From Candidatus Onthovivens sp. (lineage in GTDB: Bacteria; Bacillota_I; Bacilli_A; RFN20; CAG-826): DNA of 64,000 nt. Below, piece by piece: positions 4,565 through 26,747 of this stretch (within the stretch, counting starts at the first letter, position 1; every line of letters begins with the position of its first letter). The notes under the pieces are model-generated. The model worked only from the letters and a program-made list of their open reading frames with translations, was not told where the DNA came from and did not search any database. The stretch is taken from contig DBFJOT010000052.1 of the NCBI GenBank assembly GCA_048405595.1, positions 937-64,936 on the forward strand. Reading direction: 5' to 3'. A program made the translations under genes and the position numbers.

Positions 4565-4565
4565 T

Positions 4566-6359: not shown

Positions 6360-6725
6360 AACAAACCATTCCCTTTCAAAATAACGTTTCAATAATAACA
6401 TAGGAATTATTTTTATCAACCAAATATTCCTTATGATTTTCCTTTTTTAACGCTAGAAAAATAAATTATCATCAACATATTTATATTGACTTGTACAAAT
6501 AGCAAAAATAACACTCTTTAAGGTGCTCAAAAAAATAGTTGTAAGATTAATAAATTAAGTTTTTTAAAATTTTGCCTCGTATGTATCAACGGTCAGTCAA
6601 TCGGTACTAGTGGTATAAATATATTTTGTTGATGAAGAATTGCTAGTTAACGGTGTTCTATTCCATATATCACTTTTAGCAGAATATAAATATCCAACGA
6701 GCAATTATTTTCCGTATTATACATA

Positions 6726-10104: not shown

Positions 10105-10449
10105 TTAACCATATATATTGATAACAGTGTAACGTTTTACCTTAATTTCAATTGGCTCTGTTTCAAAAGCTATTAACTTATAGTCCTTAATCAAGTAATA
10201 ACCTAAAACTTCGCCTTCTTGATAACTGTGGTCTATACTCACTGGTTCAATTCGCGCATTCGCAGATTCTAAAACATATTGTTTTAATGAATCATTAATT
10301 TCCCCTGTTCGAGAAATTTTATAACTGACGCTTAAACTTAAAGCATCTAAGTTTGTGTAATTGAGTTGGATCATTACAAAATCCACTCCGAATAAGAAAG
10401 CTATAAATATAAATAATAAAGATAGCATCATTCCGATTTTAGAAGCCAT
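10105..10449 (-). CDS. TadE-like / pseudopilin-like protein
   Basis: 114 aa. The N-terminal hydrophobic helix MMLSLLFIFIAFLFGVDFVMIQL is followed by a beta-rich domain. The start overlaps the upstream gene by 11 nt. Confidence 0.5.
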   Translation of the reverse strand: MASKIGMMLSLLFIFIAFLFGVDFVMIQLNYTNLDALSLSVSYKISRTGEINDSLKQYVLESANARIEPVSIDHSYQEGEVLGYYLIKDYKLIAFETEPIEIKVKRYTVINIYG

Positions 10450-11107
10450 TAGTCATGCCTCCTATGATATTGACAATGATCAATAACATCGTCAGTAATA
10501 TGTATCCACTTCCTAATAGAGATAAAGTTGTAAATACATCCATCTTTTTATATCTATTAAGCATATCTTCTTTTAAATAACGACTTTTAAAATTATCAAA
10601 TAAAGAGATAAATTGATTTAAATAGTTTTCAGTGAAGCCTCCATCAATCATTTGATATAAAGAAATCATTACTTCTTCTATAACTTTATTTTTGAAACTA
10701 TTTCCAAACTCAATAAAAGGTAATATGCTTTTATCATCATCTATTCTTTCTAAGAAATTAGTAATTTCTCTTTTCATTTCTATTGAAGTATATTCACTAG
10801 CTTGCTTTAAAGAACGATAGACACTTTCTTTATTACTTAGATAAATTCTTAAATAAGAAAACACTTCAATAAATTCCATTTCTAAATGTCGTCTTCTATT
10901 TTCAAGCATGTAATCGTAACGTTTAAATAAAAAATAGATGATTCCTAAGCTAACAATTAATCCAAAAGATAATAAAACTAAATTATTAGTTAAAAAATAT
11001 ATAACAAATGAGATAGCTAAACTTAATGTAATTAAACTAGTTAGAATCGCTACTTCTTTTTTTAAATCTAAATTTAATTTTTCTATCTTTTCTTTGAATT
11101 TCTTCAT
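10439..11107 (-). CDS. TadC-like platform protein (single T2SSF/GspF-type domain)
   Basis: 222 aa. Two N-terminal TM helices, a helical cytoplasmic domain and one C-terminal TM. AAAGGAG RBS 8 nt before the ATG at 11107. Confidence 0.6.
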   Translation of the reverse strand: MKKFKEKIEKLNLDLKKEVAILTSLITLSLAISFVIYFLTNNLVLLSFGLIVSLGIIYFLFKRYDYMLENRRRHLEMEFIEVFSYLRIYLSNKESVYRSLKQASEYTSIEMKREITNFLERIDDDKSILPFIEFGNSFKNKVIEEVMISLYQMIDGGFTENYLNQFISLFDNFKSRYLKEDMLNRYKKMDVFTTLSLLGSGYILLTMLLIIVNIIGGMTNGF

Positions 11108-11813
11108 GTTTAGTTTCTCCTTTATATATGAAAGCTAAATCAAATATTCTTGTGGTGTAAGCATAATAAACTCCTAAAAACATCAAATAGTATCCTAAAA
11201 TCAAAAGTGGAAAATAACTTAATGTATCTTTGACTTCTTTAACAAATGAAGATAAAGCTACTTGAAGAATCGCTAATATAATAAAAGTAAATCCCCAACT
11301 AACTAAAAAATCTCTTTCTTTTCTTTTTGACGTTAATTCGAATTCATGAATTCTATTTTCAAGATTACGAGTATCATGAATTAATAATTTAGAAATATCT
11401 AAAATGTTAGCTCCTGATTCAACATATTGATTAATGATATTGACGAAAACTGTATATAAAGGAAGTTCGAAATATTTATTCAAGTATTCGATTTTAACTT
11501 CGACGTTTAAATGATCTATTGAACTCATTTGTTGTCTTAAAGATTCACTAGCATTTTCTTTCATAGCTTCATAAGTTGCATTAATTGAATTTGTAACACT
11601 TAATGAAATAATGAAGTTATTCATAAAACTTATTGCTTCATAATTTCTATCAATCTTTTTACTAAACTCACTAGCTTTAAAATTATACAGTCCGAAAAAG
11701 AAGAGCAAATAAAGTAAACAAACAATGATAGTTAATATCAAATCTCCAGTAACTAAGTAGAAAATCCCCGTAAAACCTAAGCAAAATAGGCTATATATCA
11801 AATATTTTGACAT
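11037..11813 (-). CDS. TadB-like platform protein (single T2SSF/GspF-type domain)
   Basis: 258 aa with a 2 TM + cytoplasmic helical domain + 2 TM layout. It overlaps the ATPase gene by 16 nt and the next gene by 71 nt. Confidence 0.6.
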   Translation of the reverse strand: MSKYLIYSLFCLGFTGIFYLVTGDLILTIIVCLLYLLFFFGLYNFKASEFSKKIDRNYEAISFMNNFIISLSVTNSINATYEAMKENASESLRQQMSSIDHLNVEVKIEYLNKYFELPLYTVFVNIINQYVESGANILDISKLLIHDTRNLENRIHEFELTSKRKERDFLVSWGFTFIILAILQVALSSFVKEVKDTLSYFPLLILGYYLMFLGVYYAYTTRIFDLAFIYKGETKHEEIQRKDRKIKFRFKKRSSDSN

Positions 11814-12865
11814 GTTTTGGTCCTTCTAACTTCATCGTTATATGAATTATATTCAAGTTCATTTAATTCAAAGTCTTTTTTAAATGAGTCATTAATTTCA
11901 TCAAATTCATTAGGATAAACATATAACTTTTTATATACTGAGTTACAATTTGTACCTATTTCATCCACATATCTCACATACATTTTTTTCTCAAAATCAT
12001 AATAAGAATTTAAGTGAACAATTAATTTAAAATGATCATAGATATCACTTAGCGTTTCTTCATAAATTAAAGACTCATTTCCGATCATCGCCATACGAGC
12101 CATTCTTTTATATGTGAACTCACTTCTTTTAGAGTGAAGTGTTGTGATTGTTGGGTGGCCACTCATAACACTGCTTAATAAAGTAAGCATTTCTTTACCT
12201 CTAGCTTCACCAACAATTAGCCAATCAGGAGTACTTCTTAAAGCATTTTTAATCAATGTGTCGATATCCACTTTGCTATTTTCTGATACGCGATTAAGCC
12301 AAGTTAATGAATCGATATCTTTAACAAAATAATCCGTTTCAAGTTCGTTAATATTATCAATTGTTATGATTCGAGAAAATGGTGGCAACTTTGATAATAG
12401 ATACTTTTGAAATTCTGTTTTTCCAGTGCCTGTTTTACCACTTATAACAATTGAGTTATTACTTTTTAAAGCAAAGTTAATTAACTTATAAGCTAATGGG
12501 TTAACAAATCCATCATTATCTTTAATTCTTAATTTCTCATATCCAATTCTTATAGAGAATGTAGTCGTTTTTTCTCTATTTTTTCGACTAATTGAGCTAT
12601 GAGTCGCATTAATTCTATATCTGCCAACACTTACATCTAAAATCGGATTAGTATAACTAAAAAGCGAATCAGTTAAATTAGCTATTTGTCTAATGAATGA
12701 ATAAGCTTCATTTTTTGTGATAGATAAGTCACTTTTCAATCTACCTTTAAGATTATCTTTATAATATACAGTTTCTCCATTGTACGAGATGTCAGTAATA
12801 GAATCTTCTTTTAATAAATCTTTTAAAAAACTATTTTCAATATATTCAACAATTTTATCAATCAT
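11798..12865 (-). CDS. CpaF/TadA/VirB11-family secretion ATPase
   Basis: 355 aa. Walker A ISGKTGTGKTEF, TIDNINELE (Asp box-like), Walker B/catalytic Glu DWLIVGEARGKE, His box SGHPTITTLHS. Confidence 0.85.
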   Translation of the reverse strand: MIDKIVEYIENSFLKDLLKEDSITDISYNGETVYYKDNLKGRLKSDLSITKNEAYSFIRQIANLTDSLFSYTNPILDVSVGRYRINATHSSISRKNREKTTTFSIRIGYEKLRIKDNDGFVNPLAYKLINFALKSNNSIVISGKTGTGKTEFQKYLLSKLPPFSRIITIDNINELETDYFVKDIDSLTWLNRVSENSKVDIDTLIKNALRSTPDWLIVGEARGKEMLTLLSSVMSGHPTITTLHSKRSEFTYKRMARMAMIGNESLIYEETLSDIYDHFKLIVHLNSYYDFEKKMYVRYVDEIGTNCNSVYKKLYVYPNEFDEINDSFKKDFELNELEYNSYNDEVRRTKTCQNI

Positions 12866-13284
12866 AAATCCTTCTCCGTTACTTCAAAACTACCTTTTCC
12901 TTTGAAAGTGAATATTTTGTTATATTGACATTCAAAGTAAAGATCAATTTTTTTAATTCTCTCTGTATATGAGCCGCTACAATAAACATATTTTTTGTTT
13001 GTCTTATCGTATTTATAGTAGACAAAACCAATTTTGTATTTATCTATTTCACCTTTAAGTGTCTTTTTAAAATATGCATTAACTTCTTCTTTGAATATCG
13101 TTGGATTGTAACAAGGTTCAAAATATGTTCCTGAATAATCAATATGTAAAATAGAATTCGATACATGATTTGGTGTAAGTTCATTAAATGTTCTAGAAAT
13201 AAACATACCTTTCATTGCGATACCTGAAAAAGACATAATCGCAATCATTATCGACATTGAAAAATAAAGTATTGAACTTGTCAC
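12862..13284 (-). CDS. N-terminally anchored hypothetical protein in the Tad-like operon
   Basis: 140 aa with one N-terminal TM helix (ILYFSMSIMIAIMSFSGIAM). ATGA overlaps at both ends. Confidence 0.55.
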   Translation of the reverse strand: MTSSILYFSMSIMIAIMSFSGIAMKGMFISRTFNELTPNHVSNSILHIDYSGTYFEPCYNPTIFKEEVNAYFKKTLKGEIDKYKIGFVYYKYDKTNKKYVYCSGSYTERIKKIDLYFECQYNKIFTFKGKGSFEVTEKDL

Positions 13285-14423
13285 ACTAATTCTTCCTTCA
13301 TAAATTTTTGATAAATATCGTCGCTTATAGTTTCACTTTTAGAATCAATAATTCGATTATCTGGATGCTCGTTTAAAAATTCTACTTTAAAAGGGTAAAC
13401 AACATTAATTCCAGTAGAAAAAATATTTTTGATATATAAAGCGCACTCTACTTCTTTATACATTTCATATTTACCTTTAGGCATAAAAAATTGAGTACAA
13501 GGAGCTGGATATTCAAACTCTTTACTATTTTTACTCATTAAGTGAGTTCTTCTATCTACATAATAATTATAATTAAATGATAAGTAGTTTAAGTTATTGT
13601 AACTTGTATGACTTTTAGAAAGCCAATTTCCTACATAACCTTCAAATCTAGGATCGATAAGATCATAAGCTTTTTTCATATATCCATAATCATCTTTAAT
13701 AAATACATATGAGCTATCATAAGTTAAATACTTACGATTAAATGGGCGTAAATATATTTTTTCAACAGGAACACGCAAATAATAATTTTCATAAATTAAA
13801 GATGGTAAATTGTATATTTCAACTCTAATTTCTTCATTGCTAAGTAATCCATTTTTAAATTTTGCATACCAGAAAACTCTTAGTTCTTTAGAAGTTAAAA
13901 CAATTTCTTTAGGCTTACTTAATTTGAAATCAACTTTATTAATGACATCTGGATTAAGCGGCTCATAGCAGCTAATAGTAAATGTTGCCCATGATTTCAT
14001 TTTTGTAAAATCGATAATTAAATCAAACGGAGTTCTAGTGTGATAAGTCTTTTTAGGAATATGTTTTTGTCCTAACACATATGTTTCACCTTCAGCCGTA
14101 GTCATTGCAAACTTTATATATAATGATTCATACGTAAAATGAACTATATTGACACTAGTTTTATAAGTATCGCCAGTATAATCATCTATATTTATATAAA
14201 AATCTTCAATGGTAGCAAAATCATGTTGCGAAATAGGGATATTTACTATATCACCTGGATCTGGTAATGTTCTTTCAAAGTCATATCTAGGTATAATTTT
14301 TTTATCTTTAGCATCAATCGCTTCATAATCAAACGCTCTATTTATCTTATTAGTTGCTTCATTTTGAAACCCAACCGATAACAAAGAAGCACTTAATGAT
14401 AATAATTTAATAAGTTTAATCAT
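13281..14423 (-). CDS. Secreted hypothetical protein, first gene of the Tad-like operon
   Basis: 380 aa. Signal-peptide-like N-terminus MIKLIKLLSLSASLLSVGF. AAAGGAGG RBS. Tyr/Asn/Lys-rich with no recognisable motif. Confidence 0.6.
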   Translation of the reverse strand: MIKLIKLLSLSASLLSVGFQNEATNKINRAFDYEAIDAKDKKIIPRYDFERTLPDPGDIVNIPISQHDFATIEDFYINIDDYTGDTYKTSVNIVHFTYESLYIKFAMTTAEGETYVLGQKHIPKKTYHTRTPFDLIIDFTKMKSWATFTISCYEPLNPDVINKVDFKLSKPKEIVLTSKELRVFWYAKFKNGLLSNEEIRVEIYNLPSLIYENYYLRVPVEKIYLRPFNRKYLTYDSSYVFIKDDYGYMKKAYDLIDPRFEGYVGNWLSKSHTSYNNLNYLSFNYNYYVDRRTHLMSKNSKEFEYPAPCTQFFMPKGKYEMYKEVECALYIKNIFSTGINVVYPFKVEFLNEHPDNRIIDSKSETISDDIYQKFMKEELV

Positions 14424-14674: not shown

Positions 14675-15217
14675 ATGATTATTCTTATAGGACCTAGCGC
14701 AAGCGGAAAAACAGAGATTGCTAAATATTTAATATCTAATTTTTCTTTTGAAAAATTTGTTACAACAACTACTAGAGCACCTAGAGTTGGTGAAATTAAC
14801 GATGTCGATTATCATTTTATTGATACTCAAAAATTTAAAGACTTAATTTCTAAAAATAAATTCATTGAATACGTTAATTATAACGATAACTTTTATGGTA
14901 CAACTTTAGAAGAAATTGATGATAAAAAAGTATTAATCTTAGAACCAAAAGGTTTGATTGCATTCAAAAAATTAAACGATTCAAAAATCGTATCTTTTTA
15001 TATCGATGCTTCTTTAGAAACCAGAAAAGAAAGAATGATTTTAAGAAAAGACGATCCTAAAGAAATTACAAAGCGTATTGAAAATGACGATATCTATTTC
15101 GAAAGCGCAAAAAAAGAGGCATCATTTATTATCAAAAATAATAATGACACCTCTATTAAAGATTCAGCTAATAAGATTTATGAAATTTATCAAGATGTTT
15201 TAAGTAAACTTAATTAA
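14675..15217 (+). CDS. gmk: Guanylate kinase-family protein
   Basis: 180 aa. P-loop IGPSASGKTE, TTTRAPRVGEINDVDYHFI and FIEYVNYNDNFYGT. Confidence 0.8.
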   Translation: MIILIGPSASGKTEIAKYLISNFSFEKFVTTTTRAPRVGEINDVDYHFIDTQKFKDLISKNKFIEYVNYNDNFYGTTLEEIDDKKVLILEPKGLIAFKKLNDSKIVSFYIDASLETRKERMILRKDDPKEITKRIENDDIYFESAKKEASFIIKNNNDTSIKDSANKIYEIYQDVLSKLN

Positions 15218-16587
15218 TCATCTTGTCCACTTATACTTTCAATTACTTTTTTATGGAAAGGTTTATCTTCCTCTTCTTTTTCATTTACTTTAATTTTAAG
15301 TTTCTCAATTGTTTGTTTTTCATCAATAGCGATAACTTTCATTTCTAAATTTTTATATATAATTACATCATTTAATTTAGCGAAATTATCATCTAAAAGC
15401 TCGATACAAAAACCGCCAATTGTGACATATTCAGTATCAATTTCTTCGTAATCTAGATCGAAAAGGTCGCAAAAGTCTTCTAAATTCATCTTACCATCGA
15501 CGATATATGAACCATTTTTAGTCTTAACATATGGTTCTTCAGGATCATCGCTTTCATCCCAAATTTCACCAACGATTTCTTCTAATATATCTTCCATCGT
15601 AAGAACACCTTCAGTTCCGCCATACTCATCAAGGATAACAGCGAAATGTTGATGTGTTTCTTTAAAACGAATTAAAATATCATTGATTTCCATTGAACGA
15701 GGGAAAGTAAGATGTTTTAAAAGAATATCTTTAATAGCAACTTCTTTATTTTCAAGTCTAATTCTTACAAGTGTTTTAGTTAAAACATAACCAATAATAT
15801 TATCAATAGAATCTTCATAAACTGGGATTCTTGAATAAATATATGTACGTTCATCTTTTAAGACTTCATTTAAATCATCATTAATATCAATCGCATAAAC
15901 ATCAACTCTAGGAGTCATAATTTCATAAGCTTCAGTTGAAGCATAATCAATTGTTCCATGTAATAATTCAGCTTTATCTTCATCGACAACTCCACTTTCT
16001 TCGATTTCATCGACCATTTCATGAAGTTCATCATCACCAATTTTAATTTCATTAACATTTTTAGTAATCGGATAAGATACAATTTTGCCAAATGTTGTAA
16101 CAAAAATTGTGATTGGGAAGAATAAATATCTTAAGCCATTAATGATATTACTATAAAGAACTGAGAATTTAAGGTTATAAATTTTACCAATTGACTTAGC
16201 GATAATTTCTCCAAAAGTAATTTTAAAGACTAAAACAATTAAGGAAGCACTTAAACCGAATGTTTCACTAATTGTTTCGATATTCGGATTATCTTTAAAT
16301 ACAATTAAAGCAATATTAACACCTAAAAGTGTAGCAATAGTATCAAGACCTGCGTTAACTGTATCATTTAACAATAAAATTGTTGAAATAGTTTGATCAT
16401 ATTCATTAGCTAACTTATATCCTCGACGCAATGATTTCTTAGTAGGATTTTCGTTATACATTCTTTCAAGTTTATTTATATTTACACTTCCATAAACCAT
16501 ATCACTACTTGAAAAGAACATACTTAAGAAAAGTAATACAACGAGAATTAAAGAATAGACTAATATTAAAATTTGTTCGTTACTCAT
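15214..16587 (-). CDS. CNNM/CorC-HlyC family membrane protein (DUF21 + CBS pair + CorC_HlyC)
   Basis: 457 aa. N-terminal 4-TM DUF21, the CBS region (...IMTPRVDVYAID...IPVY...) and a C-terminal transporter-associated domain. Confidence 0.85.
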   Translation of the reverse strand: MSNEQILILVYSLILVVLLFLSMFFSSSDMVYGSVNINKLERMYNENPTKKSLRRGYKLANEYDQTISTILLLNDTVNAGLDTIATLLGVNIALIVFKDNPNIETISETFGLSASLIVLVFKITFGEIIAKSIGKIYNLKFSVLYSNIINGLRYLFFPITIFVTTFGKIVSYPITKNVNEIKIGDDELHEMVDEIEESGVVDEDKAELLHGTIDYASTEAYEIMTPRVDVYAIDINDDLNEVLKDERTYIYSRIPVYEDSIDNIIGYVLTKTLVRIRLENKEVAIKDILLKHLTFPRSMEINDILIRFKETHQHFAVILDEYGGTEGVLTMEDILEEIVGEIWDESDDPEEPYVKTKNGSYIVDGKMNLEDFCDLFDLDYEEIDTEYVTIGGFCIELLDDNFAKLNDVIIYKNLEMKVIAIDEKQTIEKLKIKVNEKEEEDKPFHKKVIESISGQDD

Positions 16588-17702
16588 TTTTCACTAGCCT
16601 CTTTAAGAACATTTGTTCTTTTTTCATTAATCTCGCCTACTAATTCTTCGAGAATATCTTCCATAGTAATCATGCCAATGACTTTATCATTGTCTTTTAC
16701 TATCGCGATGTGTTTCTTTTCTTTGTTAAATTCTTTAAAGATATCATCAACTTTAGCATCTTTTGATACAACAAAAGGTTTTGTTAAAACACTTCTAATA
16801 TCGACATGCTTATCTTCGCAATATTCTTTAAAATAACTTTTAACATTTAAAATTCCTACGATGTTATCGATATTTTCATCATAAATAGGAATACGAGAAT
16901 AAGTCGTATTTAAAATAGCTTCATTAAGTTTTTCAGCAGTTAAGCCATTAATATCAAGAGCGAAAATTTTCTCTTTAGGAGTTAATACTTCATTGACTGA
17001 AATTGAATCAAAATAGAATGCTCTATTTAAAATTTTTATTTCATTAGGTTCAAAAAGTTCTTCGCTTTCTTCACTTTCTTCGTCCTCTTCATCATTATTT
17101 TCAACAGCTTCATCAGCGCTAAGAATAAAATCTTCTTTTGTTAAAATGTTTTCATCTTTAATTTTGAATATTTTATGAACAAGGATCAAAATTCCTTGGA
17201 AAATAATTCTGATAGGCGTTAAAAGAATGTACACAAAATAAACAGGGTAAGCTAAAAAATAGCATAACCTATTCGGTATTTCTTTTGAAATAATTTTAGG
17301 AACTGTGTCACTTACAATATAGACTAAAAAGCCCATGACAACAGTTGATAAAATTGCTTCTACACCATCTTGTAAACCATACATTTTTGCTAAATTATAA
17401 AATAACATAGCACTTAAAAACGATGTAAGAGTTTGAACGATATTATTCCCTACTAAAATAGTGACTAAAGTATTGTCAAATTTTTCAATTAATTTAACAA
17501 TAATTTTAGCCGTAATTTTTCCTTCGTCTGCAAGTACCTTAAAATGATACTTATTACAATTACTAAAGGCATTTTCTCCTGCACTAAATAGTGCGCTTAT
17601 TAATAAAAGTATTGCTATGATTATCCAACATACCCAATCAGGCATTCCATAAACTGTATGATAATCAATTGAATTCGTAAGTAATATAAAATTCGGGTCC
17701 AT
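16584..17702 (-). CDS. CNNM-family membrane protein (DUF21 + CBS pair, no CorC_HlyC tail)
   Basis: 372 aa. SAGENAF DUF21 motif and CBS pair (VLTPKEKIFALD...IPIYDENIDNIVGIL). The start may be the internal MPDWVCW at 17645. Confidence 0.8.
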   Translation of the reverse strand: MDPNFILLTNSIDYHTVYGMPDWVCWIIIAILLLISALFSAGENAFSNCNKYHFKVLADEGKITAKIIVKLIEKFDNTLVTILVGNNIVQTLTSFLSAMLFYNLAKMYGLQDGVEAILSTVVMGFLVYIVSDTVPKIISKEIPNRLCYFLAYPVYFVYILLTPIRIIFQGILILVHKIFKIKDENILTKEDFILSADEAVENNDEEDEESEESEELFEPNEIKILNRAFYFDSISVNEVLTPKEKIFALDINGLTAEKLNEAILNTTYSRIPIYDENIDNIVGILNVKSYFKEYCEDKHVDIRSVLTKPFVVSKDAKVDDIFKEFNKEKKHIAIVKDNDKVIGMITMEDILEELVGEINEKRTNVLKEASEK

Positions 17703-17728: not shown

Positions 17729-18307
17729 TTATTCTTTGACAATATGATGATGTCTGCATCTAGCTTCATAGCTTTCACTAGCTCCAACCAAAACAATTGG
17801 ATCTTTGATCGATGCAGGTTCCCCATTGATTAATCTTTGAGTTCTTGTTGCTTCTTTACCGCAGACGCAACAAATAGCAGTTAATTTCGTAACAAACTCT
17901 GCCTTAGCTAGTAACTTTGCAACGATATCAAATGGATCTCCTTTAAAATCAAGGTCTAATCCAGCAGCTATAACTCTAATACCTTTGTTAGCAAATTTAT
18001 CGATGATTTCGATGATTTCATCATCGAAAAATTGAACTTCATCAATACAAATTGCATCTAAATTTTTATCTAAGTATTTTAAAATTTCGTGGCTTTTAAC
18101 TATAGAAATAGCTTTATAAGTTTTTTTGTTATGAGATACAACTTCTGTTTCACTGTATCTATTATCGATTGATGGTTTAAATACTAAAAATTTCTTTTTA
18201 GCATATACTAATCTATTAATTCTTCTTAATAATTCTTCACTTTTACCGGCAAACATCGGTCCGCAAATAACTTCGAGCGAACCACCTGCTATATCATCGT
18301 GTCCCAT
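17729..18307 (-). CDS. tdk: Thymidine kinase
   Basis: [12 protein letters not shown]-loop, DEVQFF and a C-terminal Zn ribbon (CxxCG...CRHHH). The start was moved to MGHDD (ATG 18307), which has an AAAGGA RBS. The track start is 18355. Confidence 0.9.
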
Positions 18308-18376
18308 TAAAATCCTTTCAAAATAAATGAGAAACTTCATTTTGAAGCTTCTCATTTATATATTTAGTTTTTAAAA

Positions 18377-20656
18377 CTATTTGTTCTTTAATTGACTTGC
18401 GTAATCGATTTGACCTTCTTCACTAATTTGTGTGAGGTTTTGTGTATTCATACAATCAACAACCAAGTCTCTTGCGCGTTGGAGAGAACTATCACTCTTA
18501 ACTCTAAATACGAGAGGAATATCTCTATAAAGTTCTTTGAATGATGCATCACCAACTGGAACTGCTGTGTTTAAGTAATTCTTTGGATCTAAAGCTAAGT
18601 AAATCTTTAGATGTGACCCACCCATTGTAATCTTACAATAAGTTTTCTTATGTAATCTGAACGTATCTCCACTATTACTAACTCTATCTTTTAATCCGTA
18701 ACTCATTAATAAATTCTTGAGTGAATTATAAGCTAATACAAGGTCAGTTCCGCTTGTAAGCAATTTTTCTTGGAAATTAAGTTTGACAGCTTCAACTTTC
18801 TTAATTTCTTTTTCTTTTCCTCTAATTTCTGGTTGTGGAATTAAAGGACGTTTAGCTGGTTCAACAGGTGTTTCTTTAACAGTTGGAACTTCTTTAATCA
18901 CTTCTTTAATAATTTGTTGAGGTTTTTCAACTTCTTTAACGTAAACTGGTACTTCTTGAATAGTTTCTTTTTCTTCAACTTTAATTGATTTTAAAGCTTC
19001 TTGAAGTTGTGTACTAATTAATGTACGTAATTCTTCTTCATCAATTGTTGCTTCTTCCTCTTCTGGAGTTTCTGGAAGTGGGAATTCTTCAACTTCTTCT
19101 TCAATCTTTGTTGGAATAGCAACAACGATTGGTGGAATAATTTTTTCTTCTTGTGCAGTTGGAAGAACAGCTTTTGATTCTTCTTGAATTTTTGCTTCTT
19201 CTGTTAAAGCTTCATCTAAATGAGTTCTAATTTCCTCAGCAGGTTTAACTTCTTCAGCCTTCTTTTCTTCAACAGGTTTTTCTTCTGCTTTTGGAAGTAA
19301 ATCTTGAACACTATCTTTGATTAATGTTTTTAAATCATCAAGAGTTAAAACATCATAATCATCTTCGATAGTATGTGTTTCTTGTAAATCCTTTGTTGCT
19401 TCAAGAGCTACTTCAGGAGTAATTAAATTATTTTCTTTTAAGATATCATAGACAGCACTCTTAATATCGTCTTTTGTTAATGAATCATTAGTTGATGTAA
19501 CTGGTGCTGGTTGAGGAGCTACTGTTCTAGCTCTACTTGTTCCATAAATTGATGTTGTATTTTCATCAATTTGGTTACTTCTTAATTGATTTTCATCACG
19601 TCCGTTTGTGATATATTGGACGATTAATGGAGCGTTATTTCCGGTATGAACTGTATTTCCACCTGCAGGAATCGTATTTACTTGAGCGCCATATGGGTAA
19701 GGACCATAGCCATATTGATTCATATATGGATTTGGATTAGCACCTGTGTATCCCATAGCTGCTTGTTGTTGTTGGACGTAAGGATTATTGCTTTCATAAG
19801 CATTTGCATCCTTCTTACCTTTTTTACCTTTTTTGCTTTTTTCAGTTTGTTGATTAGCAATATTTTCGTAGCCGTGGTTTTTATAGAATTGTTGTCTTCT
19901 CTTTCTTTCGGCTTTTTCAAGATAATCATATTTATGTTGATGTAAGTAAAGCGGAATACCAACATAGATATTTGCGATTGCTTGCCATAATAATGGGAGA
20001 AGCATAATTAATAAGACAACTAATCCAACGACTAATGTCCAAGCTTTAACTTTTGTACCCATTCCGAAAGCAGGATTATTGCTGACGGATAAAATATTCT
20101 TTAAGAGTAAGAATAATGGTCCAGTTGTAGCATTTCCGCCACCTGCGATTTGATATGCTTCATTTCCATAAATCGCGCCATGAAAACCAACGATTAAGAA
20201 TGAGATACAAAATGTTGGAATAGCAAACCAAATAATATTGAATAAACTTGATTTTTTCTTTTTGTAAATAAATAATCCGAAGATTAATGTGTAAAGAACA
20301 TATAAACCATAGACTGCAATAACTAATGCAAATCCATAGAATGTTAATGAGTTAATAAAATTACCTGAAACCCACCATGAAGCTTCAAATAAATGGTTAA
20401 AGAAATTGAAATATTCTTTTCCCCATAATTTGAGTCCTGGCCACCATGTATTCCAGAATGCATTTTGGAATGCTGCACTGATGGTTTCCATTTTAGTAAA
20501 CTCAGAAAGAGCAACCGCTGGAGCGCCAAATACTAATTCGTTAACACCTGCTTGAACAAGGTTAGTTGTCATAAAGGTTAAGAAAAAGAATAAGACAGCT
20601 AATCCACTAAATAATGTAGTTAATAATATACCTTTTGTAATTCTTCCCTTAGTCAT
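18377..20656 (-). CDS. Large membrane protein, paralog 1 (N-terminal polytopic domain, long disordered linker, conserved C-terminal domain)
   Basis: 759 aa. About 6 TM helices, a basic stretch, a Q/N/Y/G/P-rich segment and an E/K/P/V-rich linker. The C-terminal roughly 130 aa are shared with 20672..22636. GGGGAGG RBS. Confidence 0.75.
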   Translation of the reverse strand: MTKGRITKGILLTTLFSGLAVLFFFLTFMTTNLVQAGVNELVFGAPAVALSEFTKMETISAAFQNAFWNTWWPGLKLWGKEYFNFFNHLFEASWWVSGNFINSLTFYGFALVIAVYGLYVLYTLIFGLFIYKKKKSSLFNIIWFAIPTFCISFLIVGFHGAIYGNEAYQIAGGGNATTGPLFLLLKNILSVSNNPAFGMGTKVKAWTLVVGLVVLLIMLLPLLWQAIANIYVGIPLYLHQHKYDYLEKAERKRRQQFYKNHGYENIANQQTEKSKKGKKGKKDANAYESNNPYVQQQQAAMGYTGANPNPYMNQYGYGPYPYGAQVNTIPAGGNTVHTGNNAPLIVQYITNGRDENQLRSNQIDENTTSIYGTSRARTVAPQPAPVTSTNDSLTKDDIKSAVYDILKENNLITPEVALEATKDLQETHTIEDDYDVLTLDDLKTLIKDSVQDLLPKAEEKPVEEKKAEEVKPAEEIRTHLDEALTEEAKIQEESKAVLPTAQEEKIIPPIVVAIPTKIEEEVEEFPLPETPEEEEATIDEEELRTLISTQLQEALKSIKVEEKETIQEVPVYVKEVEKPQQIIKEVIKEVPTVKETPVEPAKRPLIPQPEIRGKEKEIKKVEAVKLNFQEKLLTSGTDLVLAYNSLKNLLMSYGLKDRVSNSGDTFRLHKKTYCKITMGGSHLKIYLALDPKNYLNTAVPVGDASFKELYRDIPLVFRVKSDSSLQRARDLVVDCMNTQNLTQISEEGQIDYASQLKNK

Positions 20657-20671
20657 AGAATTGTGCCTCCC

Positions 20672-22636
20672 CTATTCTTCATCTTCACCATCGTCGAAAT
20701 CGTCATTTTCGAATTCAACGCTGTTAAGATCTGTTGCCCAATCACGTGTTTCAAGTTGCTTGACTTGTTCAAGACCATGTTTATCCATACAGTCTCTAAT
20801 CAATTCTTCGCCTCTTCTTAATGATAAGCCACTCTTAACTTTGAAGACTAATGGTGTTTCTTTATAAATTGCTTTACTAGAAGCATCTTTAATTGGATAA
20901 GTTGTATCAACATAATCTGCAGGATTTAATGCAAGATAAAGTTTTAATGATTTACCAGCAATTGTAATCTTACAATAAGTAACACGATGTAATCTAAATG
21001 TGTCGCCACTATTTGAAACTCTGTTGTTTAATCCATAAGATTTTAATAATGATTTTAACTCATTATATGCATCTCTTAATCCTTGATCTGCACTTTCCAT
21101 TCTGACTATAAATGGAATTCTAATAATTTTTGGTGTTCCATTACTTGTTAAAGGAATGTCAGCAGGATATTCTTTTTTCTCTTCTACTTCAGGAGTAGGT
21201 GTTTCTTCTTTTGCTTCTTCGACTGTTTCAACTTCTGGAGTTGTTTCTTCAGCTTTTTCTTCTGGAAGTTCTTCAACAACCGTTTCTTCTACAACTGTAT
21301 CTGGAGCAACAGTTTCATCGATTACTTCTGGAGTAACTTCAGTTTCAACAGTTTTTGTTTCTTCAACTGGAGTAGTTTCTTCTACTACAGGTGTTTCACT
21401 AACTTCTTCAATTTTTTCTTCTTTAACAGGAATTTTTATTTCGACTGGTTTTTGGATAACTGTTTCTTTAGTGATTACAAATTCGCTTAAAGCTTTTGAA
21501 AGTTCTTCAGCGATAATTTCGTGAATTCTTTCGGTGTTTAATTTTGCCTTTGGTTCACTTTTAGGTGGTTCAGGCTTTTTTACAGGTTTTTGTTTGAATT
21601 CTTCACCTGCACTTGCTGGCATAGCGAAGACGATTGGTGAAGGATAAATTTTCTTTTCTTCTTCTTGTTCAAATGAAGAAGCGCATGTTTCTTCTACTTT
21701 AAGTTTTTCGTCAGCACTTTTATTTGAGTTTGTTGCTTTGACGATTGCTTCAGCGATTAATTGTGCGTTTTTTTCTTGTTTATATTGATCAGCGAGTTTT
21801 AAAGCTTCTTGTCTTTCAAATTCATCTCTAACTACAGTTCTAACTTCATCAGCAGTTAATGATTTTTGAACGATTGTTTGATTTGGATAAGATGTATCTT
21901 GTGATTCGAAAATAGGACCACTCTTACCATATTTATCATAGCGTTTTAAAATTAAAACACCTTTCTTCTTTGGTTCAGGTTGAACAATTGGAGTTTCAGT
22001 AATTTTTTCGACTTGTTTTGTTGTGACTGTTTCAGTTGCAATTGCAATTTCTTCTTTCTTAAATAATCTAACTAATGTTACAAAGAAGATTCCGATAACA
22101 CCAATTAATGAGAATAAGATAGCAATAACTAAGCAATAAGCATAGATTGACCATCCAAAGTTAACACCTTCTGCTTTAAATAAAAGTAATTCAGCAAATT
22201 GTTTTGCCAACAAACCAGGTTGAATATATGCTGGGTTTAAATAGTTGCTGTAATATAATCCTAAATATGCATAGAGAATTCCACCACAGAGTACTAAATT
22301 TAAAATACTAACAAAGATGTATTTAGCTTTCTTTTTAGCACAAGCAATTGTGAATGCGATAAAGAACGCTAAACCTGTTAATGTAATTCCGATATACCAA
22401 ACGATATCAGCATAAAGATGTGAGAAGTCCCAAAGCATACCCTCTTTTAATGCTCCGAAAACATCTACATAGGTTCCAAATTCATTGAACCAGTTAACGG
22501 CTTTAGGAACAACATTTCCGCCTTCATTTAATGATCCGGATAAGACTGTTCCAAGTAAGATTAACACCCATGTGACAACTGTCCATGTAATAGTCCAGAT
22601 TGTCCAGTGTCTTAGCGTATGGTTTTTCTTTTTCAT
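20672..22636 (-). CDS. Large membrane protein, paralog 2
   Basis: Same architecture as paralog 1. The linker is T/E/V/P-rich, and the C-terminal SNSGDTFRLHRVTYCKITIAGKSLKLYLALNPADY...PLVFKVKSGLSLRRGEELIRDCM matches paralog 1. The start was moved to MKKKNH (22636), which has a GAGGGAGAG RBS. Confidence 0.75.
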   Translation of the reverse strand: MKKKNHTLRHWTIWTITWTVVTWVLILLGTVLSGSLNEGGNVVPKAVNWFNEFGTYVDVFGALKEGMLWDFSHLYADIVWYIGITLTGLAFFIAFTIACAKKKAKYIFVSILNLVLCGGILYAYLGLYYSNYLNPAYIQPGLLAKQFAELLLFKAEGVNFGWSIYAYCLVIAILFSLIGVIGIFFVTLVRLFKKEEIAIATETVTTKQVEKITETPIVQPEPKKKGVLILKRYDKYGKSGPIFESQDTSYPNQTIVQKSLTADEVRTVVRDEFERQEALKLADQYKQEKNAQLIAEAIVKATNSNKSADEKLKVEETCASSFEQEEEKKIYPSPIVFAMPASAGEEFKQKPVKKPEPPKSEPKAKLNTERIHEIIAEELSKALSEFVITKETVIQKPVEIKIPVKEEKIEEVSETPVVEETTPVEETKTVETEVTPEVIDETVAPDTVVEETVVEELPEEKAEETTPEVETVEEAKEETPTPEVEEKKEYPADIPLTSNGTPKIIRIPFIVRMESADQGLRDAYNELKSLLKSYGLNNRVSNSGDTFRLHRVTYCKITIAGKSLKLYLALNPADYVDTTYPIKDASSKAIYKETPLVFKVKSGLSLRRGEELIRDCMDKHGLEQVKQLETRDWATDLNSVEFENDDFDDGEDEE

Positions 22637-22661
22637 ATTTCTCTCCCTCAAACCTCACTAA

Positions 22662-23552
22662 TTAAACAGTTCCACTAGAACCAAGTACCTTTGATGTAAT
22701 TGCATCTGTGACATCTTTTAAGAAATAGTCAAATGCGTTTTGGAAGTTAACGTTTTCGCCAGTTTCTTTAACAGTCTCAGATATTATATATAAAGGATTA
22801 AGTCCCATACTGTCCAAAGTATTAATAAATGGTCTACAAATTTGTGATGTCGTAGACAATGGATCCATATTTTCTATGATTCCAGAGTAATTGTTAACAA
22901 ATTCACTTATTTTGCTGATGTGATCAGGTAACAATGTACTAATAGCTTGATATAAATTGCTAGATGTATCTTTTAATGGAGTAATTATGTTGTTGTCAAT
23001 TCCTTGCAATGGTGAGAACATGACGCTTATAACAACAATTCCAATGATTGCGTATCCTGCAGCTCCTACAAAAATTCCAACAATTCGAGGTATAAAACCT
23101 TTTCTCATGAATTTCGGAGTAATCCATCTTATTATCAACCAATAAAGAATGGTAGAGAGTAAGAATGCAACTGGAAGCATCAAAGTTGCAACAACTGATG
23201 TAGCGGCAAATTTGCATAAAAAACTTGCATTAAGGATTAAATAATTAGGATCCAAATCAAAATTTTGAAGTAACAATACCGCTTCTTCAACCGTCTTAAG
23301 TTCAAATACAACGCCTAAGCTTTCAGTCATGTCTATTCGAATTGGCTGAATCCAACCTTGTGTAACCAGCCAATCTATAAGATCATACCTTACAAATTTT
23401 GCAATATAATCAGTAACACCGGATTTGAGGAAGACGACCATGCCAATGGCAAAAATTGTTAAACCGATAAAGGTCCTCCACCAACCCCTGATTAGACCTA
23501 GTATTAAACCTAAGACAACAAACCCAATGAGAATAAAGTCTGTATAATTCAT
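22662..23552 (-). CDS. CvpA-like polytopic membrane protein (putative)
   Basis: 296 aa. The N-terminus FILIGFVVLGLILGLIRGWWRTFIGL resembles CvpA-family starts. The rest is multi-TM and unassigned. Confidence 0.45.
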   Translation of the reverse strand: MNYTDFILIGFVVLGLILGLIRGWWRTFIGLTIFAIGMVVFLKSGVTDYIAKFVRYDLIDWLVTQGWIQPIRIDMTESLGVVFELKTVEEAVLLLQNFDLDPNYLILNASFLCKFAATSVVATLMLPVAFLLSTILYWLIIRWITPKFMRKGFIPRIVGIFVGAAGYAIIGIVVISVMFSPLQGIDNNIITPLKDTSSNLYQAISTLLPDHISKISEFVNNYSGIIENMDPLSTTSQICRPFINTLDSMGLNPLYIISETVKETGENVNFQNAFDYFLKDVTDAITSKVLGSSGTV

Positions 23553-23732
23553 ACTACTTAATATTTTAATAACTTTTAGTAAATTTATAAAGTTAAAATA
23601 ACGTTAATTAGAAACTTTTTTTGCCGATTTACGAGTATAATGAACCAAATCGTCACTATCACATTTTTGGCTTTAAAAGATAATTTACTTTTTCCAAAAA
23701 TAGTAAATGATAAAATTTTTTTAAAAAAGTAC

Positions 23733-23761
23733 TTGCCATACCCTTATAGCGATGGTAAACT
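23733..23761 (+). promoter_or_regulatory. Putative promoter of tRNA-Val
   Basis: TTGCCA (23733..23738), 17-nt spacer, TAAACT (23756..23761), then AAT-TAAGCGCTTG running into tRNA position 1. Confidence 0.55.
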
Positions 23762-23773
23762 AATTAAGCGCTT

Positions 23774-23849
23774 GGGTACTTAGCTCAGCTGGGAGAGCAT
23801 CTGTTTGACGTACAGAAGGTCGTAGGTTCGATCCCTGCAGTACCCACCA
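23774..23849 (+). tRNA. tRNA-Val (anticodon GAC)
   Basis: Acceptor GGGTACT/AGTACCC, D arm GCTC-AGCTGGGA-GAGC, anticodon stem TCTGT/ACAGA with loop TTGACGT, T arm GTAGG-TTCGATC-CCTGC, ACCA end. 76 nt. Confidence 0.9.
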
Positions 23850-23864
23850 AGCTTAATATTAATG

Positions 23865-23891
23865 ACTCGACAGAAATGTCGAGTTTTTTTG
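23865..23891 (+). terminator. Terminator after tRNA-Val
   Basis: ACTCGAC-agaaat-GTCGAGT followed by TTTTTTT. Confidence 0.8.
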
Positions 23892-24033: not shown

Positions 24034-25404
24034 CTAGGCTTTTTTTAAGAAAGTAGAATATGCTAAATAAGCTTCGTAAAGATCGATTTTAGAAACAATT
24101 TCCATTGGAGAATGCATATTTAAGACTGCAATTCCTGCGTCAATTACGTCCATATCGAGATTTGCAAGGATATAAGCGATAGTTCCACCGCCGCCTTGAT
24201 CAACTCTACCGAGTTCAGCTGTTTGATAATAGATTCCATCTTGTTCTAAGATGTTTCTTAAATGAGCGACGAATTCTGGATTTGCATCATTGCATCCTCT
24301 CTTTCCGCCACTACCTGTATATTTATTAAAGACGATACCTTTATTTAAGAAAGCACTATTTTTTAATTCATTTACTTCTAAGAATAAAGGATCAACACCA
24401 GCTGAGACATCACTTGATAACATTCTTGAATTTGTTAAAGCATTTCTTAATGCTAATGGTGAAGTTTCATTTGATTTAACTAATAATGTAGCAATTGTAT
24501 TTTCGAAGAATCTTGATTGGGCACCAGTTGCACCAATTGATCCTACTTCTTCTTTATCAACTAAAATGCAGCAACTTGTTCTTTCTGGAATATCTTTTAA
24601 ATCTAAGATAGCCATTAATGAAGTATAAGCACAGCATCTATCATCATGCCCATAACCTGCAACCATAGATGAATCTAAACCATAGCTTCTAGCTTTTCCA
24701 GCTGGAACTACTTCAATTTCAGCACTTAAGAAATCTTCTTCTTCGATTCCGTATTTTTCATTTAAAATTCTTAAAACATTAGCTTTTACTGCGTCTTTTT
24801 CAGTTCCATCAAGTGGTAAAGTACCGACTGTAATATCAAGTTTTTCTCCTTCGATAACCTTAGCAGCAGTTTTTGTTAATTGTTCTTGCGATAAATGAAT
24901 TAATAAATCACTGATACCAACAATAGGATCTTTTGGATCATCACCGATATTTACATCAACTTTAGTTCCATCTTTTTTAACAATGACTCCATATAATGCA
25001 AGTGGAATAGTAACCCATTGATATTTTTTGATTCCGCCATAATAATGAGTATCTAATAAAGCGAATCCTGTTGATTCATAAAGTGGATTTTGTTTGATAT
25101 CAATTCTAGGTGAATCAATATGAGCACCTAAAATATTTAAACCTTTTTCAATTTTTTCTTTACCAATTACATAAAGAGCAATATTTTTGTCTCTATTAAT
25201 TACATAAACTTTATCTCCAGGTTTTAAAGTTTCAACTTCGTTTAAATCTTTAAATCCAAATTTTTTAGCTAATTCAAGTGAATTTTTTGTTGCTAAACGT
25301 TCTGTTTTTGAAGCACTTAAAAATTCCATATAGTTTTCTGCAAAATCGAAAACTTTTTTCATTTCTTCGCCTTTGTATTTTTCAAATGCGTATTTACCGT
25401 ACAT
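24034..25404 (-). CDS. M18-family aminopeptidase (aminopeptidase 1 / aspartyl aminopeptidase-like)
   Basis: Typical M18 blocks: GAHIDSPRID, GYGHDDRCCAY, VDKEEVGS, and GGGTIA...LNMHSP. The start was moved to MYGKYAF (25404), which has a GGAGGAA RBS. Confidence 0.85.
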   Translation of the reverse strand: MYGKYAFEKYKGEEMKKVFDFAENYMEFLSASKTERLATKNSLELAKKFGFKDLNEVETLKPGDKVYVINRDKNIALYVIGKEKIEKGLNILGAHIDSPRIDIKQNPLYESTGFALLDTHYYGGIKKYQWVTIPLALYGVIVKKDGTKVDVNIGDDPKDPIVGISDLLIHLSQEQLTKTAAKVIEGEKLDITVGTLPLDGTEKDAVKANVLRILNEKYGIEEEDFLSAEIEVVPAGKARSYGLDSSMVAGYGHDDRCCAYTSLMAILDLKDIPERTSCCILVDKEEVGSIGATGAQSRFFENTIATLLVKSNETSPLALRNALTNSRMLSSDVSAGVDPLFLEVNELKNSAFLNKGIVFNKYTGSGGKRGCNDANPEFVAHLRNILEQDGIYYQTAELGRVDQGGGGTIAYILANLDMDVIDAGIAVLNMHSPMEIVSKIDLYEAYLAYSTFLKKA

Positions 25405-25442
25405 ATATTCGTTCCTCCATTTCAAAATTATATATCATTTAA

Positions 25443-26747
25443 CTAAAATAGTTTAATCGATGCATCATTTAATTCAAAAGATTTTTCCATAAATGATTTT
25501 GTTAAGTTAAATAAATGAGTTACATCTTTTGAACCGATTACTTCGAAATTAGAATGCATTGCAAGTTGAGGTAATCCAATATCAACACTTAAAAATGAAA
25601 CATGGCTATTTGAAATATTTCCTAAAGTGGATCCACCTCTTACATCACTTCTATTAAAGAATTCTTGATAAGCAATATTGTTGCCCTCACATAATTCTTT
25701 AACAAATGAAGTTGATAAAGCATCACTTGTGTAAAGCATATTGGCGTTATGTTTAATAACAACACCTTTATTTATTAAACATTTGTTTTTGTTATCGCTT
25801 AATTCAGGATGATTTGGATGGATTGCGTGAGCATTGTCAGCACTAAGTAAGATTGATTTTGCAATAGCCATAAAATAATCTTCTTCGGTTTTACCTAATG
25901 ATAAAACAATTCTTCTTAAGGTATCATTAAGGAATGTTGAATCAGCTCCATTATTTGATAAACTTCCTACTTCTTCGTTATTAAAGGAAGCAAAAACATC
26001 GATCCCATCTTTATTTTTTGAATTAATAAATCCATATAAAGAAGTAAATGCAGCACTTAAATCATCAAGTTTTGGTCCTGCGATAAAATCTTTTTCGAAT
26101 CCGATAACTCTAGTTTTATCTCTGTTATATAAATAAAGATCTTCTGAAATAAAAGTTTCACCTTCTTCTAAAAAAGAATTGATTAAATCTTCATAATGGG
26201 TTCCGTTTTCTTTTGCAACACCAATAATTGGGCATAAATCGATTTGGTTATTGTATTTAAATCCATTATTGATTTCTCTATTTTGGTGGATTGCAACATT
26301 AGGAATAATGCATGTATCATCATTTGAATCAACTAACTTCGAGAAAATTTGATTATCTTTTTTATATACAATTCTCCCAGCGATACCTAAAGGTTTATCA
26401 AGCCATGAAGAAATAATCATTCCTCCATAACCTTCTACCTTTAATTTTTCATAGCCATTTTCAACAATGGTTGGATCGCTTTTAATTTTATATGTTGGTG
26501 AGTCAGTATGACTTGCAATTAATTTTAAATATAATTTTTCGATTTTTTCCGGTAAAGAAAAAGCAATTACACTAGATAAATTTCTAGTTATAAAATATTT
26601 ATGTCCTTCTTTTAAATTAAAAGGTTGGCTTTCTTTTAATTCTTCAAAGCCGTTTTTTAATAAAATTTCTTTAATTTTATTGACGCTATGGTATTCGCTT
26701 TTTGAGCAATTTAGCGCTTCAATCACTAATTCATTAATGTTATTCAC
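25443..26747 (-). CDS. M18-family aminopeptidase (second, divergent copy)
   Basis: 434 aa. ASHTDSPTYKIK, PKLDDLSAAF, FNNEEVGS and GGSTLG...GLPQLAMHS. Apparent GTG start. Confidence 0.85.
   Translation of the reverse strand: MNNINELVIEALNCSKSEYHSVNKIKEILLKNGFEELKESQPFNLKEGHKYFITRNLSSVIAFSLPEKIEKLYLKLIASHTDSPTYKIKSDPTIVENGYEKLKVEGYGGMIISSWLDKPLGIAGRIVYKKDNQIFSKLVDSNDDTCIIPNVAIHQNREINNGFKYNNQIDLCPIIGVAKENGTHYEDLINSFLEEGETFISEDLYLYNRDKTRVIGFEKDFIAGPKLDDLSAAFTSLYGFINSKNKDGIDVFASFNNEEVGSLSNNGADSTFLNDTLRRIVLSLGKTEEDYFMAIAKSILLSADNAHAIHPNHPELSDNKNKCLINKGVVIKHNANMLYTSDALSTSFVKELCEGNNIAYQEFFNRSDVRGGSTLGNISNSHVSFLSVDIGLPQLAMHSNFEVIGSKDVTHLFNLTKSFMEKSFELNDASIKLF

Follow-up and report, generated by a model that had tools for sequence, protein, structure and literature searches.

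A tandem pair of membrane-anchored proteins with a basic double-wing-like head domain in Candidatus Onthovivens, candidate cytoplasmic tethers

Bacterial proteins of the FtsK/SpoIIIE layout combine a four-helix transmembrane (TM) anchor with a long linker and a cytoplasmic DNA-handling module, and the 'bacterial frataxin' Fra of the DUF1801/YdhG family carries an acidic, iron-handling surface. YjbR has been described as a 'double-wing' predicted DNA binder similar to T4 MotA, with the open face of the sheet as the proposed DNA-contact surface in both proteins (PMC7641849), and its double-wing is structurally close to the N-terminal domain of McrB (PMC3424535). Here we describe two neighbouring genes from a 64,000-nucleotide stretch of Candidatus Onthovivens sp. 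DNA (contig DBFJOT010000052.1, positions 937 to 64,936 of the forward strand; 'the window' throughout, with positions counted from its first letter), which encode paralogous proteins with a four-helix membrane anchor, a long linker and a basic C-terminal domain that we call the head. We propose, at a probability of about 0.35 for the statement as a whole, that the head is tethered to the membrane and has a polyanion, most likely nucleic acid, as its ligand; we regard the anatomy of the proteins, their location and the fold assignment of the head as highly probable.

Compared with these described systems, the window proteins resemble FtsK/SpoIIIE by analogy only, in having four N-terminal TM helices, a long variable linker and a cytoplasmic C-terminal module, which would contact nucleic acid if our hypothesis holds; there is no homology, and no ATPase or other enzymatic domain was found in either protein with Pfam and NCBIfam. 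With YjbR/MmcQ (PF04237) the head shares, at the fold level, a two-layer alpha/beta double-wing with an open beta-sheet, but it is ~20 residues longer, has conserved motifs of its own and shows no sequence-level match; moreover, the head is membrane-tethered or arrayed, whereas proteins of the YjbR family are either small and soluble or joined to EVE, TerB or GNAT domains. The structural likeness to DUF1801/YdhG (Fra; 2oc6, 9t2w) is likewise accompanied by a different architecture, and an acidic surface of the Fra type is not found in the head, which in the window proteins has a pI of 9.4-9.5 and a net charge of +6/+7. Divergent relatives of the window proteins reach the DUF5655 model (PF18899), whereas the window proteins do not. 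The C-terminal third of the phage-defence candidate PDC-S18 is homologous to the head, with no full-length match, and the window genes differ from it in their membrane anchor, long linker and housekeeping synteny. The head family, its tethered and arrayed architectures and its syntenic presence in a Bacilli lineage appear to be undescribed so far, within a fold group that is already known.

The two genes are adjoining minus-strand open reading frames (ORFs; 18377-20656 and 20672-22651), in agreement with the tandem pair reported in the initial annotation of this stretch. The upstream paralogue (20672..22636, minus strand, 654 residues plus stop) consists of a 4TM anchor, a linker, the basic C-terminal domain and an acidic tail; the downstream paralogue (18377..20656, minus strand, 759 residues plus stop) has the same layout and is more diverged. 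For the upstream paralogue we prefer the ATG at 22636 over the TTG at 22651, because a Shine-Dalgarno sequence (GAGGGAGAG) lies 5 nt before the ATG and because its closest relatives, P0251 and P0252, which are 98-99% identical over the full length, also have 654 residues; the TTG falls within the Shine-Dalgarno site. A GGGGAGG lies 9 nt ahead of the ATG of the downstream paralogue. The window has ~28% G+C, and genetic code 11 reads without problems. The paralogues match each other by BLASTP at E=1e-43, with the signal coming mainly from the last ~135 residues, which are ~50% identical (tblastn) and from which the initial annotation had quoted its peptides exactly. At the DNA level the genes are similar over 221 nt (68%) and nowhere else, so that the pair does not represent assembly duplicates, a reading that the initial annotation had still entertained.

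Hydropathy and AlphaFold agree on four TM helices in the anchor, rather than the roughly six first annotated. In the upstream paralogue the anchor spans residues 1-192 (22061..22636, minus strand), with helices at 6-36, 74-100, 104-133 and 160-192 (AlphaFold, pLDDT 85-90) and two short helices in the outer loops of the model, which the earlier count probably took in. The downstream anchor (residues 1-236; 19949..20656, minus strand) has hydrophobic segments at ~6-38, 100-131, 136-163 and 199-234; its TM2-TM3 turn contains KKKK, and TM4 is followed by a basic stretch. For a view of the family, one genome per GTDB species was scanned; 339 stretches encode a relative, and the best 80 of these are the related loci L001-L080. 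Hydropathy and motif counts cover 104 family proteins. Exactly four hydrophobic segments are present in 86 of the 104. The N-terminus, the TM2-TM3 turn and the 25 residues behind TM4, which are predicted to lie inside, have 0.26 Lys+Arg per residue, compared with 0.05 for the two remaining loops; among the members with exactly four segments, 99% have the higher density inside. This bias indicates an N-in/C-in topology with a cytoplasmic tail, which answers by positive-inside counts a question raised in the initial annotation. Aquaporin C-termini are cytoplasmic, and the occurrence of the same domain in an aquaporin fusion and in architectures without a TM segment predicted by hydropathy (see below) further supports a cytoplasmic head. 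The anchor of the full-length 654-residue model has no significant neighbour in the PDB by Foldseek, the best matches being MgtE-like and NarI at probability <=0.14. The tether-like layout noted in the initial annotation is real, and is conserved in ~100 proteins from the 80 related loci.

The head is the best-conserved part of the protein. In the upstream paralogue it comprises residues 502-640 (20717..21133, minus strand; alpha/beta, pI 9.5) and is followed by an acidic tail that is predicted to be disordered (residues 641-654, FENDDFDDGEDEE; 20675..20716, minus strand); in the downstream paralogue the head and a short tail cover residues 620-759 (18380..18799, minus strand; domain pI 9.4). 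Its basic character extends to the family, where the pI has a median of 9.2 and lies above 8 in 87% of 214 copies. The invariant core of the upstream paralogue reads R..SNSGDTFRLH...GKSLKLYLALNP..Y...P..FKVKS, and the positions invariant among 40 aligned sequences include R38, G43, D44, F46, R47, L48, H49, T57, G60, L63, K64, Y66, L69, P71, Y74, P80, K87, Y90, P94, F97, V99, S101, S104 and R107. The SNSGD.FRLH loop-strand is invariant in the close subfamily, and SNSGD and H49 are not kept across the wider family. An AlphaFold model of the head, built from the 40-sequence alignment (mean pLDDT 89.7, pTM 0.84), is a two-layer alpha/beta structure with the order helix, four strands, short helix, two strands, long helix. 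Along the predicted strands R38, R47, H49, K55, T57, K64, Y66, K98 and K100 alternate with hydrophobic core residues, and the conserved basic and aromatic residues should therefore line the open face of the beta-sheet.

Neither full-length protein gave anything above noise against Pfam and NCBIfam, and searches of PDB sequences with a single sequence and two profiles produced no credible match. The initial annotation was therefore right that the domain matches no named model, and no well-characterised family claims it; its fold, however, is not an orphan and belongs to the YjbR/YdhG(DUF1801)/DUF5655 group. In Foldseek searches of the PDB with the head model, E. coli YjbR (2fki) ranked first (probability 1.00, E=1.1e-2, TM 0.56 on the target), with the DUF1801/YdhG structures 2oc6 and 9t2w and the Vibrio structure 2od0 also among the top four. 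The head within an independent full-length model gave the same order (YjbR TM 0.59 on the target), and between the two models the 2fki alignments have an rmsd of 3.7-4.3 A over ~97 residues at 11-12% identity, while the DUF1801/YdhG structures reach TM 0.45-0.53 and probability 0.66-0.77. Type III secretion chaperones (Spa15, InvB) were also retrieved, at probability 0.1-0.2 and rmsd 8-10 A. In BFVD, the second-ranked match was A0A8S5UUZ7, a phage protein annotated as DUF5655 (E=1.8e-3, probability 1.00; rmsd 3.1 A over 109 columns), with a TM of just 0.54 on the query and 0.37 on the target.

At the sequence level, named families are reached by way of divergent family members. The five-copy array P0240, which comes from a Clostridia metagenome-assembled genome (MAG) and clearly belongs to the family, matches PF18899 with 62.8 bits (3.6e-17) as a whole protein and at 1.3e-4 with a single head copy; the window proteins and 29 of 30 sampled head copies do not match this model. 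PF04237 is matched neither by the window proteins at E<=1 nor by the 30 head copies at E<=0.1, and PF08818 (DUF1801/YdhG) is not matched by the window proteins, although one distant family member reaches DUF1801 at 6e-5. The PDC-S18 models of PADLOC match P0108 (3.5e-25), P0307 (1.7e-12) and the upstream paralogue (1.6e-3); every one of these matches is limited to the head domain (for the upstream paralogue, model positions ~206-329 of 365), and the downstream paralogue has none. A DndE match of P0101 (E=9e-9, summed over seven repeats) contains no single significant stretch and was set aside as too weak. We conclude that the head is a distinct unnamed family in the YjbR/YdhG/DUF5655 fold group, outside those Pfam families as drawn, and that its sequence link to DUF5655 is a transitive one at the superfamily level. 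The literature library searched holds one passing mention of DUF5655, nothing on PDC-S18 and essentially nothing on DUF4268.

Between anchor and head lies a linker of 313 residues in the upstream paralogue (net charge -27, pI 4.65) and 383 in the downstream paralogue (net charge -23, pI 4.87). The initial annotation had described a low-complexity acidic linker, which is correct for the overall charge and not for the complexity, as conserved helices and motifs are embedded in it. In the upstream linker (residues 193-500; 21137..22060, minus strand), which is acidic with conserved helices and motifs, AlphaFold predicts disorder apart from helices at 262-304 and 368-386 (pLDDT 72-80); it contains the motifs GVLILKRY (226-233) and PSPIVFAMP (332-340) and two motifs of the LTxEE(V/I)RxVV type (260-273, 366-379). 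Orthologue alignments contain the corresponding blocks KKKGxLIxKRYDKxG and YPSPIVFAMP, a conserved helix of ~43 residues starting LTxEEVRxxIRDE, and a second helix, LxExxVKEIIAxEIxxALKDF. Searched with a loose pattern, the LTxEE(I/V)RxII-type helix has a median of 2 occurrences per family protein, against 0.0005 in shuffled sequences, and a P(L/F)(L/I/V)(I/V)QY motif is present in 71 of the 104 family proteins. The downstream linker (residues 237-619; 18800..19948, minus strand) runs from a basic juxtamembrane stretch through a Q/N/Y/G/P-rich part to PLIVQY (343-348), helices of the LTxDD(I/L)K type and an acidic E/K/P/V-rich part, so that the early linker of the 759-residue protein is Q/N/Y/G/P-rich and not acidic. 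Taken together, the linker is mostly disordered and net-acidic, with short conserved amphipathic helices and hydrophobic motifs (PLIVQY, PSPIVFAMP). We also observed a long antisense ORF inside each gene (19646-19945 and 21156-21524, both on the plus strand); their translations are S/T/V-rich or I/L/F-rich and mirror the repetitive E/K/V/T-rich linker coding sequence, and they are most likely not genes.

An exhaustive profile search of 1.84 billion cluster representatives (50% identity) retrieved 3156 sequences at E<=1e-3 and 2639 at E<=1e-10. Most of the best 150 of the 3156 have the layout seen in the window, with a basic N-terminus, four TM helices, a linker and one head; across the family a protein carries one head or an array of as many as seven, on several unrelated N-termini. 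Soluble proteins carry an N-terminus of ~450 residues that matches DUF2357, followed by 3-7 heads with acidic spacers (P0101, P0106, P0108, P0187); P0103 joins a SipW-like signal-peptidase membrane module to three heads; and several proteins have a single TM helix and 2-4 heads. In P0308, a cluster of 212 members whose named sources include Candidatus Onthovivens and other Bacilli MAGs, an aquaporin-family (MIP) channel is followed by an acidic linker and one head at its cytoplasmic C-terminus (L090 826-2205), which gives related Bacilli lineages a second membrane protein with the same head. Four of 29 diverse members (P0311, P0312 and two others), with polytopic or coiled-coil N-termini, also contain a uL15-like (Ribosomal_L27A) domain (best E=3.1e-15), which stands at the C-terminus in P0311 and P0312. 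P0307, a DUF2357-like array protein, contains CxxC...CxxC, a probable zinc ribbon with a sub-threshold NCBIfam match; it is flanked by unannotated proteins of 607 and 1591 residues without Pfam matches (L084 302-2125, 5743-10518). Many divergent members show a conserved DY..PYE..LIE.GLIK extension behind each head copy.

In a related clade, anchor and head are encoded separately. At L081 a 531-residue 4TM protein (4394-5989) is followed by a soluble 173-residue head protein (6001-6522; P0055), and the same arrangement is found at L082 and L083. The split genes lie 11 nt apart in different frames, in the same synteny as the unsplit gene; the linker of the 531-residue protein consists of EEYYxxLxKELPxL repeats, and its 173-residue partner is made of one such repeat and a head. 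At least 13 clusters start with M(R/H)KY(D/E)EAYY, which shows that the split is conserved and not a sequencing error. For the domain-bearing part of family members, every source name was "hypothetical protein"; a word-index protein search with a divergent profile returned only the same unnamed fragments, and the gene neighbourhoods of P0307, P0312 and P0308 contained no informative partners.

Submitter labels for the best 80 loci vary, with most naming uncultured Bacilli, "Mollicutes", Bacillales or Erysipelotrichaceae MAGs (including Candidatus Onthovivens, Enteromonas and Alloenteromonas) and a few bins labelled Bacteroidales, Lachnospiraceae, Paludibacteraceae or Parasutterella; where their titles name a source, it is rumen or faeces. 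The 22 closest loci (L001-L022) carry the tandem pair. Their upstream copy matches the upstream copy of the window best in all 22, and their downstream copy matches its counterpart best in 20, clearly so in L001-L012, by a small margin in several of L013-L022, and with L015 and L022 marginally favouring the upstream copy. The other 58 loci (L023-L080) hold a single gene, nearly always scoring higher against the upstream copy. The upstream paralogue is thus the copy nearest to the single-copy gene of related genomes, while the downstream paralogue is found only in the clade with the pair; the duplication therefore predates at least 22 species-level lineages, and the 759-residue protein is the more diverged copy. 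On the 3' side the synteny is stable across the 80 loci, with two CNNM/CBS genes, gmk on the opposite strand and then a cluster with a T2SSE-type ATPase. tblastn with the head domain gave no match in phage and plasmid collections. The gene is chromosomal, not mobile or island DNA, and holds a conserved position in a widespread lineage of uncultured gut and rumen Bacilli.

The 5' side differs between the two groups of loci. A CvpA-like gene stands directly 5' in 19 of the 20 pair-clade loci with room upstream (L010 and L012 being without such room), and this adjacency is restricted to the tandem-pair clade (19 loci). In 27 loci, counted among 72 with room upstream of which 52 are single-copy, a DAGK_cat (YegS/BmrU-type) lipid kinase lies directly 5' of the single-copy orthologue (L025 3158-4036, L059 3180-4058 and 25 others). 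This ORF of 290 residues was considered as a possible CvpA-like gene, an assignment that was rejected in favour of the DAGK-type kinase. At L025 an ORF identified by eye as CTP-synthase-like precedes the kinase, and a DAGK_cat/YegS gene (L087 5106-6077) is found two genes 5' of the distant member P0312. Such neighbours hint weakly at a connection with membrane lipids; the synteny could also be inherited.

We read the head as a cytoplasmic binding module because it sits on unrelated anchors (4TM, aquaporin, SipW-like, single TM) as well as in soluble arrays, and we lean towards nucleic acid because of its basic pI, its double-wing kinship and the fusions to DUF2357, zinc-ribbon and uL15-like domains. 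In the mechanism that we propose, the head would be the working end, a module binding a polyanionic macromolecule, most likely DNA or RNA, while anchor and linker would keep the bound partner near the membrane, at a distance of up to some tens of nanometres as roughly guessed from the linker length. Repulsion between the acidic linker and the anionic membrane might make the linker a spacer; alternatively, the linker might compete for the basic head within the same molecule. The two paralogues possibly act together. The tethering or scaffolding role is one that we infer from the architecture, and DNA or RNA as the ligand of the head is a tentative prediction. Several points weigh against this proposal. 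DNA binding by YjbR itself is a structural prediction, and the fold does not fix the ligand, because its group includes type III secretion chaperones and the iron-handling Fra/YdhG proteins. The structural matches are modest (TM ~0.45-0.59, with a Foldseek E of 1e-2 at best against the PDB), the single-domain sequence links to named families are marginal, with one of 30 copies matching DUF5655, and the placement of the conserved residues, which should lie on the exposed sheet face, is drawn from strand periodicity alone. Strongly acidic linkers beside a nucleic-acid binder are unusual, though not unknown. The neighbouring genes show no nucleic-acid signal, and the lipid kinase 5' of the gene in 27 single-copy loci could point to membrane lipids instead.

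The main rival to nucleic-acid binding is protein or peptide docking, in which the head would bind a protein or extended peptide and the pair would form a scaffold that recruits or self-assembles a cytoplasmic complex; the docking target could include PLIVQY and PSPIVFAMP of the same or the sister protein. Conserved short linker motifs are typical of protein-protein contacts, a hetero-oligomer would fit the retention of two adjacent paralogues, and the 173-residue protein of the split genes, which begins with the linker repeat of its partner, suggests docking in trans. The chaperones Spa15 and InvB among the Foldseek matches point the same way, but with the low probability and large rmsd given above; in addition, a basic surface and arrays of up to seven heads behind nuclease-associated N-termini fit a polyanion better, and the contexts read contain no partner gene that varies together with the family. 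We therefore consider docking unlikely, while giving it serious weight. The lipid-kinase neighbours and the Fra-like matches bear on another explanation, in which the head would sense a small anionic ligand, be it a nucleotide second messenger, the head group of a phospholipid or, as in Fra/YdhG, a metal, and would modulate the attached membrane protein or lipid metabolism. Structural matches to DUF1801/YdhG 'frataxin' proteins, the fusion to an aquaporin-family channel, the DAGK-type kinases next to the single-copy genes and near P0312, and the invariant SNSGD.FRLH of the close subfamily are all consistent with it. Frataxin-like iron binders, however, use an acidic ridge that the basic head lacks; SNSGD and H49 are lost in the wider family, the kinase synteny within Bacilli may be inherited gene order, and neither 300-residue linkers nor arrays of 3-7 copies look like regulatory sensor domains, which makes a sensor improbable.

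The PDC-S18 matches and the DUF2357 (McrBC-associated) N-termini would also allow a component of anti-phage defence. The PDC-S18 match, however, covers a shared domain only, is weak for the upstream paralogue and absent for the downstream one, and the PDC entries are themselves candidates (PMC11514479); a domain in common with defence proteins does not make the window protein one. Furthermore, across 80 species-level loci the genes keep stable housekeeping neighbours instead of lying in a variable island, and phage and plasmid collections gave no tblastn match. With a weak, domain-only match set against housekeeping synteny, we rejected this explanation as very improbable. An artefact, whether assembly duplication or spurious ORFs in low-complexity DNA, draws on the repetitive linker coding sequence that yields the long antisense ORFs; it is opposed by the DNA divergence between the two genes, their intact frames and individual Shine-Dalgarno sites, the orthologous pair conserved in 22 genomes and a head pLDDT of ~90. 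Its likelihood is negligible, and assembly duplication was rejected because of the DNA divergence and the conserved orthologous pair.

In the window, the two paralogues belong to a same-strand run that looks like one operon, consisting of the CvpA-like gene, the upstream and downstream paralogues, tdk and two CNNM/CBS genes. The gaps measure 25 nt from the stop of the 296-residue CvpA-like gene to the upstream paralogue, 15 nt between the paralogues and 21 nt from the downstream paralogue to tdk. The thymidine kinase gene (tdk; 17729..18355, minus strand), 3' of the downstream paralogue, is mentioned as context only; its label in the initial annotation is solid (PF00265, E=3e-56). In contrast, the CvpA-like label of the polytopic membrane protein 5' of the upstream paralogue (22662..23552, minus strand) is sub-threshold, with 19.7 bits for PF02674 against a cut-off of 29.3 and coverage of residues 5-43 only; the protein has no NCBIfam match, and we treat it as context rather than a proven part of the system. 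The two CNNM/CBS (CorC/HlyC-type) membrane proteins are tandem paralogues (15214-16587 and 16584-17702, minus strand) whose ORFs overlap by 4 nt. The predicted promoter of the operon would lie in the gap at 23553-23773. This is part of a 482-nt gap 5' of the CvpA-like gene that also holds tRNA-Val(GAC) on the opposite strand (23774-23849, plus), followed by a terminator-like hairpin (23864-23885); Rfam and tRNA scans ahead of the operon detected only this opposite-strand tRNA-Val and no regulatory RNA.

Tandem duplications are common here, and the two paralogues are flanked by the CNNM/CBS pair on one side and by a second pair, two M18 aminopeptidases (24034-25425 and 25443-26747, minus strand), on the other. 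Further along, six co-directional ORFs (10105-14423, minus strand) have as their sole Pfam match a T2SS/T4P-type ATPase (T2SSE) at 11801-12865. Most related loci have this cluster in the same position 3' of gmk, and it may be a pseudopilus- or competence-like system that includes unannotated components.

The fold placement, the cytoplasmic location and the catalogue of anchors and arrays turn an anonymous pair of ORFs into a testable hypothesis, in which the pair would tether nucleic acid or some other polyanion to the membrane, and a domain model built on the head would annotate thousands of proteins and clarify the common ground of DUF5655 and PDC-S18 proteins. In its widest form, which we put forward as a speculative and rather doubtful generalisation, the family would be an undescribed class of bacterial membrane-to-nucleoid (or RNA/ribosome) tethers, built from a basic double-wing head, interchangeable anchors and acidic disordered linkers, with the window pair as its founding example. 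In a genome-reduced lineage of uncultured gut Bacilli it would be a duplicated core gene, and arrays across Bacillota would use it again. If true, such a class would be functionally comparable to the chromatin tethers of the eukaryotic inner nuclear membrane, and a nucleic-acid tether of this kind would bear on how the chromosome or translation is organised at the membrane in small-genome Bacillota.

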